A DNA stretch of 56,817 nt from an uncultured marine group III euryarchaeote (GTDB lineage: Archaea; Thermoplasmatota; Poseidoniia; MGIII; CG-Epi1): the NCBI GenBank assembly GCA_902531985.1, contig CACAGG010000002.1, forward strand, positions 1-56,817, written 5' to 3'. The notes beneath the pieces were generated by a model. It was not told the DNA's origin. It made no database searches and saw only the letters and a list, made by a program, of their open reading frames with translations. Below, in pieces: positions 15,118 to 23,087 of the stretch. The translations under genes and the position numbers were made by a program. How positions within the stretch are numbered: position 1 is the stretch's first letter; each line of letters begins with the position of its first letter.

Positions 15118-16953
15118 TTATTCACCCTCCTTATTTTTCCAACTCATCTTCTTTTGAATGAATCTTTTTCTGTTATAAGCTTTTATCAAATCTCCTTTTG
15201 TAATGATTCCTATTATTTTTTTATTATTCTTTTCATCAACTACAGGTAAGTGACTAATTTCCTTATAGCCTAAAGAATCTAAAGCATGTGTTAACGAATC
15301 TCCTATTGAAACTGTAACTAAATCAGTCGTACAATAATCAGCTACAGTTAAGTGCCTTTCATGGTTAACAGCAGCATCATGCACGTCTGACCAAGTGATA
15401 ATTCCATGTAAATCTCCATTATCATTAATAACAGGTAAACCCATATGTCCAGTATCTTCTATTATCTGTAAAGCCAGCTCTAAGGGAGAATCTGGCTTTA
15501 TTGTTATGAGATCTTTTGACATTGCTTCTTCAACAGTAATCATTCGCATCAAATCTTGACCAGTACCTAAATCAATCCGGATTCCTCTTTTAGCTAATTT
15601 TGAAGTGTAAAAAGAGTGTTCAGATAAAACATAACAAACAGCATCTGCAACAACACAGGAAAGCATTAAAGGAAGTATGATTTCATATGTTGCAGTCATT
15701 TCAAATAGTAAAACAATTGCAGTTAAAGTAGCACGCGTGGTCGATGCAACAAAGGCAGCCATACCCACTAAAGCAAATGCACCAGGATGTCCTACAATAT
15801 CATATGAATTTAAAATGAGTCCAAGAGCAGCTCCGATTGCAGCGCCTATAAACAAGCTGGGAGTAAATATTCCACCAGATCCTCCACTGCCTATAGAGAT
15901 AGTTGTAGCAATTATTTTTAAGGCCATTATAGATAAAACAAAAAGCAATAAACTTCCCATACTCGATGAAAAATTATCATCTGAAGGAAAGCTGTCTCCT
16001 AAGATTAAATTATTATTTTCATCACTGTCTAATGAAATTAAATCAGAAGTAACATCAAACCCATTTCCTAAAACATGTGGGAATGTCAATGCTATCAATC
16101 CAACACATAATCCTCCTAATGCAGTTTTAACAGGCATAGGTATATTGTCAAACTTATCGATATTGTCTTCAACAAAGTTCATCATTTTTATAAAAATTGC
16201 AGCAGCAAGTCCAATTATTACACCCAGTACAACGTAAAATGGATATTCAATGGGTGATTCTAGAGTATAAGCAGGAATGCTGTCGAAAGCTGCAACATCT
16301 CCAGTTAAACTTCTACCGACAGTTGTTGCAATCACTGCAGCGACAACAATAGGTATGAATGATCGTGTTTTCAACTCAGCTAACACCAATTCAATGGCGA
16401 ATAATACACCTCCTAATGGTGCATTAAATGCAGCAGTAATAGCACTTGCAGCTCCGCAGCCTACCATTGTACGGGTATCTTCTACAGTTTTTCCCGCGCG
16501 TTGACCAATTTCTGAACCAATTGTAGAGGAAATTACAACCATAGGCCCCACACGCCCTAAAGACATCCCGGTACCGATACATGCTGCAGATGCAAAACAC
16601 TTCGCTACGGCTTTTCTCGCGCTTAGGCGAGCCTCCTTAACGGCTACAGCTTCCATAACCATAGGAACACCAGCCCCCTTTGCTTCCTTTGACCAATATT
16701 CGATAATTAATCCTGCAATTAGCCCTCCCAACGCAGGGATAAAAATAATCATCCATTCTCTATCAGTTCCTTTGAGATTGTTTTCTATGAAGCTATCTCC
16801 ATAAAAGACTCCCTGGATACCCTGGCTCATAGATATAAAAATCCATGTCATCAAAGCAGCACATGCACCAGTAAATGCAGCTAATAAATTAATCTGAAGC
16901 ATTGGAGACTTGAAAACATCTTCAAGTCGCCTCATTGCATCAGAATCTTTCAT
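15118..16953 (-). CDS. ClC-family chloride channel / H+-Cl- antiporter with C-terminal tandem CBS domains
   Basis: Contains selectivity-filter-like motifs (GAGVP; GMSLGRVGP of the GxxxGxEGP type; GSGGSGGIFTPS of the GIFxP type). About 10-12 TM helices are followed by two CBS-like repeats. Confidence 0.9.
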   Translation of the reverse strand: MKDSDAMRRLEDVFKSPMLQINLLAAFTGACAALMTWIFISMSQGIQGVFYGDSFIENNLKGTDREWMIIFIPALGGLIAGLIIEYWSKEAKGAGVPMVMEAVAVKEARLSARKAVAKCFASAACIGTGMSLGRVGPMVVISSTIGSEIGQRAGKTVEDTRTMVGCGAASAITAAFNAPLGGVLFAIELVLAELKTRSFIPIVVAAVIATTVGRSLTGDVAAFDSIPAYTLESPIEYPFYVVLGVIIGLAAAIFIKMMNFVEDNIDKFDNIPMPVKTALGGLCVGLIALTFPHVLGNGFDVTSDLISLDSDENNNLILGDSFPSDDNFSSSMGSLLLFVLSIMALKIIATTISIGSGGSGGIFTPSLFIGAAIGAALGLILNSYDIVGHPGAFALVGMAAFVASTTRATLTAIVLLFEMTATYEIILPLMLSCVVADAVCYVLSEHSFYTSKLAKRGIRIDLGTGQDLMRMITVEEAMSKDLITIKPDSPLELALQIIEDTGHMGLPVINDNGDLHGIITWSDVHDAAVNHERHLTVADYCTTDLVTVSIGDSLTHALDSLGYKEISHLPVVDEKNNKKIIGIITKGDLIKAYNRKRFIQKKMSWKNKEGE

Positions 16954-17873
16954 TTAGTCAAAACCTCATTTCCCGATTTAGTGATTAGTAAAGTATGTTC
17001 CGATTGTGAAACAATACCATTGCCTAATTCATCTAAAACAGGATAATATGATACAATGCCAGCTCGCATTAATTTCTGCAAGTTCTTAGTTGCATCTTCC
17101 TGTATTTTGTGTAACCACCTTTCAGCAAATGGTAAACCGTTGTATCTATCACGAATTTCGATCATCAACTGAGTTGCCTTTTCATCTCTAATTTTCCTTA
17201 TTTGCCTAAGATGGTATATGTTCGAATTACGCTTTCCACCAACTCTACCAGCCCCATCTGTAACAAAAGGTTCTATTGCAACTATATCTCCGCTTGTTAA
17301 TACAGGACCTCCTCTCTCTCGGATACTAGGTATAGAAATCCCACTATGCAAATTATATCTTTTTATTCGATGGCCAGTTAAGTTTGCTATAGGTCTATAT
17401 CCGTATTGCTCAATTTTATCCTGCACAGCATGGCCGATTATTCCAACATTCACACCGGCACTAGCTACATCTATGGCGGCATTAAGAGCCTCACGTGAGG
17501 CCTCAATCATTTTTTCATATTCATTAGTTTCTATTTCAACAGTTAGAGCATTATCTCCAATATACCCGTCAATGTGAACTCCAACATCCAGCTTAACGAC
17601 ATCACCTCTTTTGAAGGTTTCTTTGCTTTTGGTTGAAGGTGTCCAGTGTGCACCTACATTATTTACAGCCAAATTAGTAGGAAAAGCCAAATCACCTCCG
17701 TTTTTTATTACATAACTTTCGATTTCTTCAGTTATAGTTAGCATATTTCCCCCATCTCTTATAAGGGATTTACCAAAGTGTAAGGCTTCTCGAGCCAATT
17801 TCCCGGCAGCTTTCCATTTTTCTTTTTCCTCAGGATTCAAGTATTCCCTCCAAGATAGTTGAATATAAAGCAC
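16950..17873 (-). CDS. map: Methionine aminopeptidase, type 2 (archaeal)
   Basis: By eye it aligns with archaeal MetAP: FPTNLAVNNVGAHWTP, KLDVGVHIDGYIGD, LTGHRIKRYNLHSGISIP, AIEPF and SQSEHT. A GGAGG-N6-TTG at 17840 (L12) is a plausible alternative start and would shorten the overlap with the upstream gene. Confidence 0.9.
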   Translation of the reverse strand: MLYIQLSWREYLNPEEKEKWKAAGKLAREALHFGKSLIRDGGNMLTITEEIESYVIKNGGDLAFPTNLAVNNVGAHWTPSTKSKETFKRGDVVKLDVGVHIDGYIGDNALTVEIETNEYEKMIEASREALNAAIDVASAGVNVGIIGHAVQDKIEQYGYRPIANLTGHRIKRYNLHSGISIPSIRERGGPVLTSGDIVAIEPFVTDGAGRVGGKRNSNIYHLRQIRKIRDEKATQLMIEIRDRYNGLPFAERWLHKIQEDATKNLQKLMRAGIVSYYPVLDELGNGIVSQSEHTLLITKSGNEVLTK

Positions 17874-18411
17874 CTATGCGGGTTATTTCAGGTTCGTCAT
17901 TCGTTAAATTAATAATTGTAGATTCAATTCCTTTTGGCTTTTCTCCATCTAAGTATATGCAATTACTACCAAATATTAGTTTAGCTTCATCCAGATTCTT
18001 AGCAATTTCATCACCGTGTAAATTAACGCTAGTAGTAACAATAGGTACTTCCTTCGTTAATTCTAAAGATGTTTTATTAAGAGGTATTCTGACACCAAGA
18101 TTGCCATTTCTCATTACTCCTTTAGCAAATTCTTTCTTTGATTTAAGTATTAGTGTAACAGGCCCAGGTAAGAATTCTTCAATTATTTTTTTAGCTTTTT
18201 TATTTGTATTACAAGTGTCATAGATGTGTTTTTTTTCACTAAACATAACACTCATTCCATTTTGTTTTTTACCTTTTAATTCAAATAATTTATCAACAGC
18301 TTCTTGGTTTGAAGGATCACACCCCATACCCCAAACAGTATCGGTAGGATAGATCAATAATTTCCCATTTCGTAATGCTTTTCTAGCCTCTTCGATGGAA
18401 ACCATAAACAA
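17830..18411 (-). CDS. tsaC: L-threonylcarbamoyladenylate synthase, YrdC-domain-only form (TsaC/Sua5 family)
   Basis: Contains the YPTDTVWGMGCD motif (PTDTxYG) and later GVRIP and SVNLHG segments. At 193 aa it has only the YrdC domain and lacks the Sua5 C-terminal domain. Confidence 0.8.
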   Translation of the reverse strand: MFMVSIEEARKALRNGKLLIYPTDTVWGMGCDPSNQEAVDKLFELKGKKQNGMSVMFSEKKHIYDTCNTNKKAKKIIEEFLPGPVTLILKSKKEFAKGVMRNGNLGVRIPLNKTSLELTKEVPIVTTSVNLHGDEIAKNLDEAKLIFGSNCIYLDGEKPKGIESTIINLTNDEPEITRIGALYSTILEGILES

Positions 18412-18447: not shown

Positions 18448-19590
18448 TTATCTTTGCTCTATAGGTCTAAATGTACGGTCTATTTGACCTACATATCTAG
18501 CGCGAGGTCTAATTAATCGGTTATTTCGATATTGCTCAAGAACATGAGCAGTCCATCCTGCAATACGAGACATTGCAAATAAAGGAGTGAATAAATCGGT
18601 AGGAATATCCAATCCGTAGAGTAATGGCGCCGAATAAAAATCAACGTTAGTTATTATTGCTTTTCTGTCTTTGACTTGTTTCTCAATTTCTTCAGAGACT
18701 TCGAAGAGCTTCATGTCGTTCTTTTCTTCCCAGATTTTCTTCGCCATTTTCTTTAGATGTGGCTTGCGCGCATCATCCACCTTGTAAACTCTATGTCCAA
18801 AACCCATAATTTTTTGCTTTGTATCAAATGCATTTTGTATATAATCAGAAGCTTTTTTCTTTGTACCAACTTCAATAATCATATCCATTGCTTTTTCGTT
18901 TGCACCCCCATGTAAAGGGCCGCTTAATGTACCAACAGCAGAAGTAATTGCAGAGTGTAAATTTGCTAAAGTTCCTGCAGTAACTCTCGCAGAAAAAGTG
19001 GAGGCATTAAATCCATGATCTGCCAATAAGATTAGATACAGATTTAAAGCATTGACTTGAGTCTTAGAGGAATCTGTTCCATGTAGCATTTTAAGAAAAT
19101 CTTCCGCATGGCCCTTTGTGGGATCAGCTTCAATAATTGGTAGATTTTCTCTCGACCTGTGTATCATTGCAACAGCAGTTGCAATTTGACCCACTAATCT
19201 TAGAGCCTTAGGTGGTAGTTCTTTAAGAGGTACATTCTTTTCGTAATGGCCAAGTACAGAAACTACAGTTCTTAGGGTGCTCATGGGTGAGGTTTTACCC
19301 ACTAACTCAGTTATTATTTCAATGACTTCTTTTGGTAAAACTCGAGCTTCACCTATATTTTTAGTCATTTCATCTAATCTTTCTTTATTAGGTAATTCGT
19401 TGTCGTAAAGTAAACAAATAGTTTCTTCAAAGGTAGTGCTAAATGCTAAATCATCAATATTGTAACCACAATATCTGAGGATACCCTTTTCACCATTTAC
19501 AGAACTTAGAGTAGTATCTGCAGCTACAATGCCTTCTAATCCTTTTGTAGGTTCAGGAATTGAATCTTTGTTATCTTTTGGTAGCGACAC
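18448..19590 (-). CDS. gltA: Citrate synthase
   Basis: Contains GPLHGGANE, MGFGHRVYKVDDAR and AGWTAHVLEQ. The size (380 aa) fits the archaeal/Gram-positive type. The start codon is GTG. Confidence 0.92.
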   Translation of the reverse strand: MSLPKDNKDSIPEPTKGLEGIVAADTTLSSVNGEKGILRYCGYNIDDLAFSTTFEETICLLYDNELPNKERLDEMTKNIGEARVLPKEVIEIITELVGKTSPMSTLRTVVSVLGHYEKNVPLKELPPKALRLVGQIATAVAMIHRSRENLPIIEADPTKGHAEDFLKMLHGTDSSKTQVNALNLYLILLADHGFNASTFSARVTAGTLANLHSAITSAVGTLSGPLHGGANEKAMDMIIEVGTKKKASDYIQNAFDTKQKIMGFGHRVYKVDDARKPHLKKMAKKIWEEKNDMKLFEVSEEIEKQVKDRKAIITNVDFYSAPLLYGLDIPTDLFTPLFAMSRIAGWTAHVLEQYRNNRLIRPRARYVGQIDRTFRPIEQR

Positions 19591-19632: not shown

Positions 19633-19986
19633 TTATTGTTTATATTCAGTTACTCGAATTCCAAAGTCACCCATTATTGCTTTTCTCTCCATAATTAGTT
19701 TCATTTTTTCATTAAATGCTTCCTCCAGATCAACATCCATAGCTATGGAATGTCCAATAATGAGTATTAGTAAATCAGCTAATTCTTCTGCCTTTTCGTT
19801 ATCAGACTTACCCTTTGTAAAGCATTCAGCTAATTCGCCCAGTTCTTCCATTGTGAGTAAAATACGATAAGACATATCGTGCCCACGGTATTTCACATTG
19901 CTAAAATCATGTTTATCGTGGAATTTCTGAACCTTTGCTAACATTTTGGAATATGTCTGACTCATCTTTTGCCATAGGAGAGCCAC
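19633..19986 (-). CDS. MazG-like nucleotide pyrophosphohydrolase (single-domain)
   Basis: Contains EELGELAE...EELADLLILIIG...DLEEAF..K, the all-alpha NTP-PPase pattern (EExxE...ExxD). Length is 117 aa. Confidence 0.7.
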   Translation of the reverse strand: MALLWQKMSQTYSKMLAKVQKFHDKHDFSNVKYRGHDMSYRILLTMEELGELAECFTKGKSDNEKAEELADLLILIIGHSIAMDVDLEEAFNEKMKLIMERKAIMGDFGIRVTEYKQ

Positions 19987-19990
19987 TTTG

Positions 19991-20923
19991 TTATGTTTTC
20001 TTTGCTATTTTTTCAGCTATGGAGATACATGCCATATAATCTTCAGCAGCTTCTCTCAAGCTTCCCAAAGTATCAGCCTGAATTGTAGCTTTTATGTAGT
20101 TCTGATGTAGTGTTGTTTCAACCCACCCTTTATTTTCAGGTTCAGTTGCTTTTAAAATGGCTTGAGCAGTCTTTTCATTATCAAATTTAATATTTAAAGC
20201 AACTTTATGTTTTATTATTTTCTTTATAGCTTTTTGACTTCCGCTACCGTATTGTGCGGCCTTCTTTTTTCTATAGGCAATTTCCTCAGGGAGACTAAAT
20301 TTTATAGCTAATTTTCTTAAAACTTCTTTTCCTATTTGACCTACACGTTCTTTCTCGCTAAATTTTTCAGCAACCTCAATAACATTTTCAGCTAAATATG
20401 GACAAGCTAATTCTAATCCAAAGATCTCAGTAATTTTATTCTCACGATTAGGCAATCTTTTTACTAAGTCCTGCACTTCTTTTTTAAGATTTTTTTTAGC
20501 TCCTTCTTTTCTGAATCTAGCATATCCTCCGAATAATTCATCGGCACCTTGGCCACACATTAAAACAGAATTAGAAGCATTTTTTGCAGCAATCCAAAAT
20601 GGAAGCATAAATTCTACTTCAATATTAGTTAAGTTTAATTGTTTTTGCATTTCTTTTGCTTCTGCAATCATTTCGCTTGGTTGAATTTCAATAGTTTTTA
20701 ATTTCATTCCGATTAATTTAGAAGCAGATTTAGCAGCTTTTAAATCATAAGAATTGGAAGTTCCAACAGCAATTAATTCAACATCCACATATTTTTTAGA
20801 AATGAAAGCAACTAATGCAGAGTCAATTCCCCCAGAGAATGCAACCGTAATTTTTTTTTTAGCAAATTCTTTAATTACAATATCTAATTCATGATAGAGT
20901 TTATCAAACAGTATTTCAGACAT
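19991..20923 (-). CDS. Asparagine-synthase-like PP-loop ATPase (no glutaminase domain) fused to a C-terminal Pcc1-like domain
   Basis: Contains the PP-loop AFSGGIDS, an AsnB-type GQGADELFGGY and KKAAQYGSG. The C-terminal roughly 70 aa (ALNIKFDNEKTAQAILKATEPEN...ATIQADTLGSLREAAEDYMACISIAEKI) follow the Pcc1/CTAG pattern. Confidence 0.65.
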   Translation of the reverse strand: MSEILFDKLYHELDIVIKEFAKKKITVAFSGGIDSALVAFISKKYVDVELIAVGTSNSYDLKAAKSASKLIGMKLKTIEIQPSEMIAEAKEMQKQLNLTNIEVEFMLPFWIAAKNASNSVLMCGQGADELFGGYARFRKEGAKKNLKKEVQDLVKRLPNRENKITEIFGLELACPYLAENVIEVAEKFSEKERVGQIGKEVLRKLAIKFSLPEEIAYRKKKAAQYGSGSQKAIKKIIKHKVALNIKFDNEKTAQAILKATEPENKGWVETTLHQNYIKATIQADTLGSLREAAEDYMACISIAEKIAKKT

Positions 20924-21495
20924 TATGAGGCAATAGTAGTTTTAGCAATAAATATTTCTAATTCTTTTAATGCTTTTTTAGCTTTTGCTAAACTAATTAT
21001 ATCTGTAACAATTAAAACGCCAGATTGAAAAATAATAAAACTTGCATCAGGTTCATCCATCCTCAAAACTAACCCACTAAATCGAGAGGGGTCATACTCA
21101 GCATTAGGTACTGCAAGTGCTAGCGTTTGGAGGTCTATGGTAGAGTTCATGTTACTTTTAACAACCATATTTTCCAGCTTAATTGCTCTCTTCATATTTA
21201 TTTTTGAGTCTAGCGGCTTAATTAGATTTCTTAAATTAGCTACGACTTCTTTTCCCTCGTCAAGTGAGGTTACACCCGTTACGATTAATTTTCCATTGGC
21301 AAACAGGATTCCCGCAGCTTTCAAACGCTTGCTACCAATAAATTTTGAGCTATTCATATCTATTTCAATGATTATAGAGGGATTTCCCGAACTAGAATAT
21401 CGAGCATTAGGTATTTCAGTTGCTAACTTCACTAATTCTACCTTTTTTCCTAGGTGAGATGCGACAATTACGTTCTCTACTTTTACTGGACCCAC
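20923..21495 (-). CDS. tbp: TATA-box binding protein (divergent, with an insertion in the first repeat)
   Basis: It has two imperfect repeats. Repeat 2 (NMVVKSNMNSTIDLQTLALAVPNAEYDPSRFSGLVLRMDEPDASFIIFQSGVLIVT) matches the TBP consensus well. Repeat 1 (VENVIVASHLGKKVELVKLATEIPNARY...) is more divergent. Confidence 0.8.
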   Translation of the reverse strand: MGPVKVENVIVASHLGKKVELVKLATEIPNARYSSSGNPSIIIEIDMNSSKFIGSKRLKAAGILFANGKLIVTGVTSLDEGKEVVANLRNLIKPLDSKINMKRAIKLENMVVKSNMNSTIDLQTLALAVPNAEYDPSRFSGLVLRMDEPDASFIIFQSGVLIVTDIISLAKAKKALKELEIFIAKTTIAS

Positions 21496-21533: not shown

Positions 21534-22538
21534 TCAAGCAAATTCGTCAAATGGGTATGGTTCAGGCTTTATTTTACCCATTACTATTTTGGTTTCAGGT
21601 ACAGTTAGAAGTGGTATTGGCCAAGTAGGCCCATCTTCTATAGCCAGTCTAGGGCATGCAGTAATTACAGCTGCATCTATTCCCATTCCTAATAACTGGT
21701 CATGTGATTGATGAATACTTCCAACCATTATCGTTTCTCTACCACCTTTAATTAGTAGTTCTTCTATTTTTTCAGCTAATTCTATTCTTTTTTGACCTAT
21801 TTGGTTTGAGAATAGAACAGCCCATCTTTGTGCGTCTTTGGCCTTAGATATTGCAGCATAACGTTGCTTTAGGAAAGGCTTCGGATCAGCAATAGAAACT
21901 ATACCATTGTGTGGTTCAAGGCAAGCAACAGGTTTCCCTGTTGAAAGAGCTACAGTTAATGGATGAAATAGTCCGGTACCTATATACAAGAAGCCATCGA
22001 CTCTTAATCTTCTAGCAGCAGATGAATTACATCCTAATAATTGGCCTTGGCCGGCTAATCGAGGTCCGCCAGTAGTTACGCTTGTATCAAATCCATGCTT
22101 TTCCAGTATTTCACCAGCATAATCTACTAGGTGGAGATGCTGAGCAGTTGTTACGATTCCAATTTTATTGGGAAGTATATTTTTTATTTCATTAATAGCT
22201 TCAATTTCTAAATTTAAAGTTCCTGTATGTCTTACAGGTACAAAATAAGTAGGAATAGCATAGAACTCAGAATGATAAGGCATAGGCAAGTGACCCAAGT
22301 GAATCAGAGCGTCAGCACCTATTTCTTCTAGTGGTCTATCAGCAAGGTCACATGCACCATATGTTGGTTCACCCCAAAGAAGGACTTTTGCACCCGTTAG
22401 TTCATTGATTAAAGTTGTAATTTCATGTGATTTTGTTTTTAATCCATCAGGAACTTGAACGCCAATTCTTTTTTTATCCTTTAATTTTAGGCATACCTCT
22501 TCAATTCCGGGCTTCCAATCAAATGATATTTCACTCAT
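21534..22538 (-). CDS. dph2: Diphthamide biosynthesis enzyme Dph2 (2-(3-amino-3-carboxypropyl)histidine synthase)
   Basis: Size (334 aa) and colinear segments fit archaeal Dph2: RIGVQVPDGLK, YGACD, ADALIHLGH, TTAQH, LGCN and TGLFHP. Confidence 0.85.
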   Translation of the reverse strand: MSEISFDWKPGIEEVCLKLKDKKRIGVQVPDGLKTKSHEITTLINELTGAKVLLWGEPTYGACDLADRPLEEIGADALIHLGHLPMPYHSEFYAIPTYFVPVRHTGTLNLEIEAINEIKNILPNKIGIVTTAQHLHLVDYAGEILEKHGFDTSVTTGGPRLAGQGQLLGCNSSAARRLRVDGFLYIGTGLFHPLTVALSTGKPVACLEPHNGIVSIADPKPFLKQRYAAISKAKDAQRWAVLFSNQIGQKRIELAEKIEELLIKGGRETIMVGSIHQSHDQLLGMGIDAAVITACPRLAIEDGPTWPIPLLTVPETKIVMGKIKPEPYPFDEFA

Positions 22539-22584: not shown

Positions 22585-22923
22585 TTATTTTAATCTTATT
22601 AAGTTCAATTCAAGAAGCTTTTCAAGAAATAATTGAACCCTTTTATCTGCAGGCGCCACTTCTTCGCCAAATTTAGAATCTAACTCATGAATGATGTCCT
22701 TTACTGTATGCATTTCATCACATAAGTTCCAAATAAGTGTAGTGTATTTGTCAAGAGGTCTTTTTACAATATCCGACCCTCCAATTCTATTGTATACCCA
22801 TTTTTCAATTTTGCCAAACTCTTTAGGATAACTAATGGTTACAATTCCTTTGTTTGTTAAACATTTAATTTTAGGATTATTAATTTTTGCAGGTTTCTTT
22901 AACAATATTTTATTTTTTTTCAT
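22585..22923 (-). CDS. PqqD-family (RiPP-recognition-element-like) small protein
   Basis: The C-terminal LIWNLCDEMHTVKDIIHELDSKFGEEVAPADKRVQLFLEKLLELNLIR fits the PqqD pattern. I prefer the ATG at 22923 (MKKNKILL...) over the track start at 23010, because that ATG overlaps the stop of an upstream small ORF (ATGA). The 23010 extension is Cys/Trp/Tyr-rich and looks like out-of-frame readthrough. Confidence 0.6.
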   Translation of the reverse strand: MKKNKILLKKPAKINNPKIKCLTNKGIVTISYPKEFGKIEKWVYNRIGGSDIVKRPLDKYTTLIWNLCDEMHTVKDIIHELDSKFGEEVAPADKRVQLFLEKLLELNLIRLK

Positions 22924-23087
22924 AATTTTTCCATACCAATAACCATAACTGCCAAAGTAGCAGCACCAGCAATTGCCGCATATCTTACTGCTAATTTTTG
23001 ATCTTGCCAAACAAATCTAGATACCCATACTAGCCATCCACTACCTATAGCTACTATTAGCATGGTTGCAAAAATTATACTCCACAT
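22920..23087 (-). CDS. Small (55 aa) two-TM membrane protein, not in the ORF track (below the size cutoff)
   Basis: Manual translation gives MWSIIFATMLIVAIGSGWLVWVSRFVWQDQKLAVRYAAIAGAATLAVMVIGMEKL*. It has two hydrophobic helices with a basic loop. Its TGA overlaps the ATG of the PqqD-like gene. Confidence 0.4.
   Translation of the reverse strand: MWSIIFATMLIVAIGSGWLVWVSRFVWQDQKLAVRYAAIAGAATLAVMVIGMEKL

Follow-up and report, generated by a model that had tools for sequence, protein, structure and literature searches.

A predicted Pcc2-type KEOPS subunit fused to an asparagine synthetase B-like PP-loop domain in marine group III archaea

The archaeal KEOPS complex, which takes part in forming N6-threonylcarbamoyladenosine (t6A) in tRNA, is built as a linear chain, Cgi121-Bud32-Kae1-Pcc1, at the end of which Pcc2 pairs with Pcc1, and in the published KEOPS-tRNA structures it is this Pcc1 end that lies near the anticodon stem-loop. 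Most archaea have two Pcc paralogs, which differ in “box 2” of helix alpha2, where Pcc1 has Asn followed by Ser or Thr and Pcc2 has two successive acidic residues, each either Asp or Glu (Daugeron et al. 2023, PMC9889334; papers identified here by PMC number are, unless a wider scope is given, cited from portions of their text, and what is said of them applies to those portions). A second body of earlier work concerns asparagine synthetase B (AsnB)-like PP-loop domains, since de Crecy-Lagard et al. noted in 2012 (PMC3541065) that such a domain occurs fused to the diphthine-ammonia ligase Dph6, and a reviewer of that paper asked what its role might be. The present analysis concerns a gene in which a domain of this second kind is joined to a KEOPS subunit. 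It lies in a 56,817-nucleotide stretch of DNA, referred to throughout as the window, from an uncultured marine group III (MGIII) euryarchaeote (contig CACAGG010000002.1 of assembly GCA_902531985.1, positions 1 to 56,817), and whereas the Pcc2 proteins described so far are free proteins of about 80-90 residues, the Pcc2-type domain found here forms the C-terminal 72 residues of a 310-residue enzyme fusion.

That the protein has this two-domain architecture, and that its tail is of the Pcc2 type, can be regarded as close to certain. In an AlphaFold2 (AF2) model of the whole protein, built on a 45-sequence alignment, the mean predicted local distance difference test score (pLDDT) is 88.4, values below 50 occur only at residues 221-225, within the loop KKKAAQYGSG, and just a few residues link the enzyme domain to the first strand of the tail. 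The initial annotation of the window had described an AsnB-like PP-loop domain without a glutaminase, followed by a C-terminal Pcc1-like domain. The first half of that description is borne out, as Pfam Asn_synthase matches residues 22-146 (E 1e-29) while no glutamine amidotransferase (GATase) family of Pfam matches anywhere in the protein, which begins 29 residues before its PP-loop; of the second half, the assignment to the Pcc family stood, on the evidence of Pfam, NCBIfam and Foldseek, but the identity as Pcc1 did not.

Membership of the Pcc family emerges from profiles and fold alike. Pfam Pcc1 (PF09341; cut-off 20.9 bits) scores 25.8 bits against the whole protein and 29.7 bits against the 79-residue tail, and NCBIfam NF011470, “KEOPS complex subunit Pcc1” (cut-off 27), scores 40.9 and 44.6 bits respectively; the tails of more distant fused homologs fall under the PF09341 cut-off, at 16.9-19.4 bits, and one of them (L026) gives no match. 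Comparison with the PDB required a profile, a single-sequence phmmer search with the tail having returned nothing at E<=10. A profile made from 13 fused tails found solved Pcc2 and Pcc1 chains at E 3e-5 to 2e-4 and no unrelated chain at E <1, scoring 26.8 bits for Pcc2 of Pyrococcus abyssi as against 18.2 bits for Pcc1 of the same species. Modelled alone (pLDDT 86.1), the tail adopts a beta-alpha-beta-beta-alpha fold, for which, among the Foldseek matches listed, ranks 1-21 are all KEOPS Pcc1, Pcc2 or LAGE3 chains, with TM-scores of 0.71-0.81. The profile and structural likeness to Pcc1 on which the initial annotation had made its proposal depend is thus present.

As to which of the two paralogs is involved, the acidic pair of box 2 is found in 17 out of 17 fused ORFs examined (as E294-D295 in the present protein), and it is invariant in the fused tails together with L57, D63, C67 and A71 (numbered as in the tail alignment), all of them marks of free Pcc2. 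A search of the assembly for stand-alone Pcc genes, one of the checks proposed with the initial annotation, yielded a single stand-alone Pcc1, a 75-residue ORF on another contig (C24) that has N-S in box 2, matches solved Pcc1 chains and not the P. abyssi Pcc2 chain, and is placed between the genes for L37ae and prefoldin beta, downstream of exosome genes. Across the phylum, 30 Pcc ORFs occur in loci with prefoldin beta and/or L37ae genes. A maximum-likelihood tree was calculated from 72 Pcc domains over 72 columns, and although many of its forks are open, all 30 of these context-defined Pcc1 ORFs, that of the window's own genome included, fall in one clade (SH-aLRT 96), while all 12 fused tails lie outside it, alongside 25 Pcc2-type ORFs (support 82); three very divergent ORFs, from one family, branch outside both groups. 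The idea that the fused domain might be the lineage's only Pcc1 is accordingly rejected, given the stand-alone Pcc1, with its N-S pair and exosome/prefoldin context, and a tree that excludes the fused tails from the Pcc1 clade.

The spread of the architecture, which the initial annotation had suggested surveying, was followed through 81 genomes of the class, 41 from the window's order (marine group III) and 40 from its sister order. The window's own assembly amounts to 971 kb in 56 contigs and is 75% complete. Of the 41 genomes in the order, 37 gave fused-type matches, 36 of them reaching both domains and one running off the end of its contig; another genome has only a tail fragment, at a contig start, and the three that have no fused copy are 60-70% complete. 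None of the 40 sister-order genomes has a fused-type gene, the only matches there being three weak ones to ordinary long AsnB genes. Full-length homologs share 43-79% identity within the window's family and 35-37% between the two families of the order, both of which keep both domains. In 25 genomes of the order the pattern is one fused copy and one small Pcc1, with no further stand-alone Pcc scoring above E 0.004, the exceptions being a contig-edge fragment, one missing copy and three matches at E >0.01 inside long ORFs; more widely, exactly two Pcc genes are present in 30 of 33 Thermoplasmatota genomes checked. The fused tail is the sole Pcc2-type gene found in the order's genomes. In the sister order a free Pcc2-type ORF was seen in the one genome where any was found (G002, L107 4044-4514; at most 156 residues, and probably shorter), while a complete-looking genome of the other family (G006) gave no Pcc-family gene with NF011470 at E<=0.1. 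Because one fused copy, one small Pcc1 and no other Pcc is thus the pattern in these 25 genomes, the fused tail is, as far as sequence can tell, the order's Pcc2, i.e. the fifth subunit of archaeal KEOPS. What it has in common with archaeal Pcc2 as described (PMC9889334; PDB 7A66, 7A67) comprises the fold, the family profiles, the acidic box-2 pair, the position outside the Pcc1 clade, and the status of a second Pcc-family gene beside a canonical Pcc1 in the same genome.

A much larger collection, of 1.84 billion representatives at 50% identity, gave a similar picture, in that only two entries among the matches listed, P0028 (309 residues) and P0121 (348 residues, from the order's second family), span both domains. 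Two short entries, P0150 (74 residues) and P0146 (100 residues), match the tail region only, but their starts coincide with internal Met positions in close homologs and the contigs of their source collection are mostly short, so that they are taken as probable fragments rather than as free Pcc2. The other close relatives (31-41% identity) have the enzyme domain only, either as free proteins of about 230-280 residues or within proteins of 400-650 residues that have something extra at the N-terminus; in those longer relatives that were scanned this is a class-II glutamine amidotransferase, as in the 471-residue “asparagine synthase-related protein” of Pyrococcus furiosus, and one of them (P0282) carries GATase_6/7. 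In databases the 309-residue fused proteins go by the name of “KEOPS complex subunit Pcc1” or “asparagine synthase (glutamine-hydrolysing)”, both of which are wrong for them. The domain match is therefore already in the databases, while the fused form of this known KEOPS subunit is undescribed in the literature searched, and the fused architecture did not turn out to be a common, named family with a known role outside KEOPS. The search found no paper on the fusion, the supplementary tables of PMC9889334, which possibly name MGIII proteins, having lain outside it, and nothing on DUF7411 (see below); in the text of PMC9889334 the word “asparagine” does not occur, and “fusion” or “fused” is used only of tags, of an engineered Pcc1-Pcc1 and of Kae1-Bud32.

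The enzyme domain is a member of an uncharacterised archaeal AsnB-related subfamily. Besides Asn_synthase, it matches DUF7411 (35.9 bits) and, more weakly, NAD_synthase, and the best PDB matches of the AF2 model in Foldseek are E. coli AsnB, carbapenam synthetase, beta-lactam synthetase and human ASNS (E 2.8e-12 downwards). With AsnB, beta-lactam synthetase and carbapenam synthetase it shares the synthetase-domain fold, the SGGxDS PP-loop and the GxGxDExFGGY motif, and its PP-loop, Rossmann-like fold and AsnB-type second motif are those of the PP-loop ATP pyrophosphatase superfamily. Unlike these relatives, it has no glutaminase, carries Gln in place of Glu348 of E. coli AsnB and is about 100 residues shorter; moreover, it scores 111 bits with the AsnB equivalog TIGR01536, far under the cut-off of 267.1, and 102 bits with NF006949, against a cut-off of 499. 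A glutamine-hydrolysing asparagine synthetase B is thus not what the sequence describes, the GATase domain, Glu348 and an equivalog-level score all being missing. The Dph6 profile PF01902 (DUF71 / ATP_bind_4) was not among the fusion protein's matches either. The ESM Atlas neighbours of the fused family are exclusively clusters labelled “asparagine synthase domain”; that at rank 21 comprises 339 AsnB-domain proteins of about 274 residues, 94% of them from tailed phages (Uroviricota). In a scan of species representatives, members of the subfamily were seen in Methanomassiliicoccales, Methanomicrobiales, Methanobacteriaceae, Methanosarcinales and Archaeoglobales, as well as in Thermococcus, Bathyarchaeia, Nitrososphaeria, Altiarchaeia and Asgard contigs.

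At the level of individual residues, S30, G31, G32, D34 and S35 of the PP-loop are invariant in both of two alignments, of 45 and 28 sequences, as are K220 and Q224, with K221 also invariant in the larger one; in fused and free forms taken together, the PP-loop, D128, K199, K220 and Q224 vary little or not at all. Alignment to E. coli AsnB (1ct9_A) places Q125 opposite E348 and retains counterparts of R387 and K449, whereas K376 and D384 have no counterpart in the domain. Gln is the usual residue at the E348 position throughout the subfamily, occurring in 119 of 119 fused-family matches, in 112 of 133 global representatives and, among the longer relatives, in 103 of the 114 where the motif could be located.

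The reading that we favour, tentatively and as something possible rather than probable, is that the protein may be an ATP-dependent carboxylate-activating enzyme tethered to KEOPS. Overlapping Kae1 and Bud32 genes are present in the assembly, as are Pcc1 and a threonylcarbamoyl-AMP synthase, and since these components are present and the positions characteristic of free Pcc2 are kept, the protein would be the Pcc2 subunit of the order's KEOPS, its tail forming a heterodimer with the stand-alone Pcc1. As only a few residues separate the enzyme domain from the first strand of the tail, this short linker would hold the domain rigidly at the Kae1/Pcc1 end, where the anticodon loop binds. To judge by its PP-loop and conserved Lys and Asp residues, the domain would adenylate a carboxylate with ATP, and in the absence of a glutaminase domain the nucleophile would be either free ammonia or a group of the substrate itself, so that the acyl-adenylate would be resolved to an amide in the one case or, by an internal nucleophile as in beta-lactam synthetase, to a ring in the other. 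That the domain acts while bound to KEOPS seems a fairly good possibility, just short of probable. The likeliest-looking carboxylate at that place would be the threonyl carboxylate of newly made t6A37; that t6A is in fact the substrate is a guess by analogy, and must be considered unlikely.

The analogy in question is with TsaN, a TsaD-TsaC-SUA5-TcdA fusion that combines t6A enzymes with TcdA, an ATP-dependent activator of the t6A carboxylate (PMC10484737), so that a coupling of t6A synthesis with carboxylate activation does exist in nature. It is, however, an analogy of logic only, in that a t6A-carboxylate activator is there joined to t6A-synthesis proteins; TcdA is E1-like and not an AsnB homolog, and a t6A activity of the present domain is conjecture. 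As for the tethering itself, the age of the fusion, its conservation and one independent gene cluster make it plausible that the enzyme is held at KEOPS by the fusion. The cluster is that of genome G089, from another family of the phylum, where a free AsnB-like gene and Bud32 are found within 4.5 kb on one strand, having between them a 209-residue ORF that has no Pfam match, a Pcc2-type gene (D-D in box 2, 43.3 bits with NF011470), a translin-family gene and one other gene. In genome G142 a free copy and the Pcc1-prefoldin pair are 1.2 kb apart, separated by a gene that is transcribed divergently; in an Archaeoglobales contig a Pcc-type ORF lies 3.2 kb from an AsnB-like gene, on the other strand; and in a DPANN-like contig (L185) Sua5-Kae1 lies 1.2 kb from a gene for a glutamine amidotransferase (GAT)-AsnB-like-Dph6 protein.

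A number of observations weigh against a KEOPS-tethered enzyme acting in this way. A Pcc gene is found within 6 kb of a free AsnB-like gene in only two of 36 Thermoplasmatota loci (those of G089 and G142), and in the species-wide scan a link to KEOPS is seen at four of 66 archaeal loci, two of which are the MGIII fusions themselves, the neighbour searches having used single sequences or a small profile, with which divergent genes can be missed. The genes that do recur around the free copies in the 36 Thermoplasmatota loci are, by sequence reading, topoisomerase-like, endonuclease III-like, FolC-like and Hyp genes, which reflect lineage synteny only; translation-modification genes, including Elp3, Dph2 and Dph6, are absent there. 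The conserved neighbours of Pcc2-type genes include no TBP, Dph2 or YrdC. The chemistry of AsnB may not carry over, because Gln125 replaces Glu348, the residue of E. coli AsnB that is needed for acyl-adenylate formation. Cgi121 (PF08617) was not found in the window's 75%-complete assembly. The list of t6A derivatives in PMC9654439 contains, in the portion cited, no amide derivative, and gives cyclic t6A (ct6A) for Bacteria and Eukarya only.

Finally, the subfamily is tied more often to diphthamide genes. Among the matches listed, 12 of 120 longer relatives have Dph6 (PF01902) as a fusion partner, some of them along with a GAT, in DPANN-type archaea (P0190, P0296, P0321, P0326, P0328, P0333, P0353, P0357, P0368, P0374, P0390 and P0395; two fusion loci are L184 7536-9428 and L185 7338-9467). 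Dph2, for its part, is a close neighbour of the fusion gene in each of the two MGIII families, and an Altiarchaeia contig has it next to a free copy. The GAT-AsnB-like-Dph6 proteins (PMC3541065) resemble the present one in that a member of the same subfamily (33-39% identity over the domain, with the same DUF7411 match) is fused to a modifier of the translation apparatus; they differ in their partner, a diphthine-ammonia ligase as against the non-catalytic KEOPS subunit of the present fusion, and in usually having a GAT, which the present protein lacks.

Such links lend themselves to an explanation in which elongation factor 2 would be the target of the AsnB-like domain, working alongside Dph2 and Dph6, for instance at or close to the ATP-dependent step that amidates diphthine; the Pcc2 tail would then be incidental or would serve to couple two modifications of the translation apparatus. 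The Dph6 fusions, which are named diphthine-ammonia ligase in Woesearchaeota and Nanoarchaeia, and on which the reviewer's question of 2012 already bore (PMC3541065), are what would be expected from it, as is the location of Dph2 two genes upstream of the fusion gene in the window's family (f1) and directly adjacent in the other (f2), together with the free copy convergent with a Dph2 fragment in the Altiarchaeia contig. Yet, of the 28 other genomes of the family, 27 have a canonical Dph6, as do all 32 genomes searched from the class's other three families, so that diphthine amidation is already covered; neither Dph2 nor Dph6 is near the free copies in the 36 Thermoplasmatota loci, and the tail is left unexplained. 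We think this improbable. A stronger form, in which the AsnB-like domain replaces Dph6, was considered because PF01902 was not found in the window's assembly, and was rejected, as PF01902 is present in 59 of 61 genomes of the class and its absence from a 75%-complete assembly is probably a gap. A more prosaic possibility, to which we give rather more weight although it too is on the unlikely side, is that the fusion is neutral, i.e. that the tail is an ordinary Pcc2, that the AsnB-like domain carries out some unrelated amidation of its own, and that an AsnB-like-Pcc2 gene pair lost its stop codon in a small, compact genome and was not selected against. Family genomes are indeed 0.7-1.6 Mb in size, G089 has the AsnB-like gene upstream of Pcc2 in the same order but unfused, the enzyme is widespread in archaea as a free protein, its gene usually lying away from KEOPS genes, and Pcc2, which is reported not to affect t6A catalysis directly in vitro (PMC9889334), probably tolerates cargo. 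Set against this are the retention of the fusion, with its very short linker, in both of two deeply diverged families, the general experience that such long-lived fusions of unrelated functions are uncommon, and the presence of Bud32 as well in the G089 cluster.

It might also be that the tail, although derived from Pcc2, was taken over by the enzyme for dimerisation or as an adaptor and works outside KEOPS, the order's KEOPS then having four subunits. Pcc2 can homodimerise (7A66, titled “structure of Pcc2 from Pyrococcus abyssi”), many archaea manage without it, Pcc2 being present in 11% of DPANN and 38% of Asgard genomes (PMC9889334), and the extra N-terminal domain usual in AsnB is missing from the fusion protein; nevertheless, invariance of the free-Pcc2 marks L57, D63, C67 and A71 and of the acidic pair speaks for an unchanged partner surface, and the stand-alone Pcc1 has been kept, which makes a recruited tail distinctly improbable. 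Still further down the scale, and very improbable indeed, is a macrolactam (lasso-like) cyclase of the type acting on ribosomally synthesised and post-translationally modified peptides (RiPPs), which would work with the PqqD-like protein encoded three genes upstream (ORF 22585-23010). Lasso cyclases share the AsnB fold, and there are weak NCBIfam macrolactam and lasso cyclase matches (E 4e-4 and 0.063), but their scores, 19 and 12 bits, are under the cut-offs of 300 and 525; neither a precursor nor a leader peptidase came to light, though no search was aimed at them, Dph2 and TBP intervene between the PqqD ORF and the fusion gene, and outside MGIII the free members in the 66 archaeal loci have no PqqD neighbour.

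The coordinates of the fusion gene, its domains and motifs, and the neighbouring genes are collected in Table 1.

Table 1. Features of the fusion gene and its surroundings in the window (all on the reverse strand; E, expectation value; TBP, TATA-binding protein).
Feature	Position	Strand	Remarks
Fusion gene, AsnB-like PP-loop domain plus Pcc2 domain	19991..20923	-	single uninterrupted ORF, 310 residues plus stop
AsnB-type adenylating domain without glutaminase, residues 1-238	20210..20923	-	archaeal “GQGADE” / DUF7411 subfamily
PP-loop SGGIDS, residues 30-35	20819..20836	-	aligns with SGGLDS of E. coli AsnB
GQGADELFGGY, residues 124-134	20522..20554	-	Gln125 opposite Glu348 of E. coli AsnB
KKKAAQYGSG loop, residues 219-228, subfamily hallmark	20240..20269	-	K220 aligns with AsnB K449
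Pcc2-type KEOPS subunit domain, residues 239-310, beta-alpha-beta-beta-alpha	19994..20209	-	assigned from profiles, fold match and tree
Glu294-Asp295, acidic pair in “box 2” of helix alpha2, Pcc2 mark	20039..20044	-	Asn-Ser/Thr at this place in Pcc1
PqqD-domain ORF	22585-23010	-	PqqD 35.6 bits, cut-off 23.4; just upstream of Dph2
Dph2, radical-SAM enzyme of diphthamide synthesis	21534..22538	-	Pfam Diphthamide_syn E 2.5e-67
TBP	20923-21495	-	between Dph2 and the fusion gene
MazG-like ORF	19633-19986	-	next downstream of the fusion gene
Citrate synthase	18448-19590	-	from sequence reading only, not a family search
YrdC-only threonylcarbamoyl-AMP synthase (TsaC type), 193 residues	17830..18411	-	Sua5_yciO_yrdC E 1.1e-44
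Methionine aminopeptidase	16950-17873	-	from sequence reading only

Of these neighbours, the YrdC-only TsaC gene had been placed at 17830-18411, on the same strand as the fusion, by the initial annotation, and this is upheld, since it scores 158 bits with TIGR00057 (L-threonylcarbamoyladenylate synthase), for which the cut-off is 123.2; it is also the sole PF01300 match in the assembly. As a neighbour it adds little, because its linkage to the fusion gene is kept in one family only, inside a long syntenic block, and is absent in the order's second family. The assembly's only YrdC-family gene is thus of the short TsaC type, without a SUA5 domain; archaea usually carry the longer Sua5 form. The order Dph2-TBP-fusion holds in family f1, while in f2 (locus L025) the fusion gene and Dph2 are directly adjacent, despite rearrangement. 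The PqqD ORF, which resembles a RiPP recognition element and has no obvious RiPP partner genes, keeps its synteny across the family.

In the Altiarchaeia locus mentioned above (L144 7956-12730), the free AsnB-like gene is convergent with a 93-residue N-terminal fragment of Dph2, after which come an aIF5B-like gene (by sequence reading) and then TBP, Dph2 appearing to be split or truncated; a neighbourhood of TBP, Dph2 and an AsnB-like gene thus recurs in a second phylum. The window's genome also has a 301-residue paralog of the enzyme domain (34% identity; contig C1, L008 1378-2283, + strand) that has no Pcc tail, carries Ile in place of Gln125 and lies directly downstream of Elp3 (L008 51-1373). 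The same adjacency is seen in all 18 other genomes of the genus in which the paralog was detected; the family's other genera yielded no such gene. Speculatively, this paralog is a candidate for the amidation of 5-carboxymethyluridine (cm5U) to 5-carbamoylmethyluridine (ncm5U), a step for which, to our knowledge, no enzyme has been named in any organism; among the papers that a literature search on Elp3, ncm5U and archaea listed, none mentions asparagine synthetase.

Taken to its furthest, this line of thought would make the “GQGADE” subfamily a set of ATP-dependent amidating or cyclising enzymes for carboxylates in the translation apparatus, each directed to its target by a fusion or operon partner, such that the Pcc2-fused member would convert t6A37 to an undescribed amide or cyclic form and the Elp3-adjacent paralog would amidate cm5U34 to ncm5U. 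So broad a generalisation is improbable as it stands, but were it true the Pcc2-fused member would be an archaeal, non-homologous counterpart of TcdA.

Pcc2 has been known only since 2023, and the role ascribed to it is structural, namely to keep KEOPS from dimerising. To find the only Pcc2 of an order welded to a conserved ATP-using enzyme suggests that this end of KEOPS may serve as a docking site for anticodon-loop chemistry. The fusion corrects the database names of the 309-residue proteins, and it provides a handle on a widespread archaeal AsnB-related subfamily whose reaction has been in question ever since the Dph6 fusion was noted in 2012. If the enzyme does act on t6A, or on some other carboxylate of the anticodon loop, this would amount to a new tRNA modification in abundant, uncultivated marine archaea.

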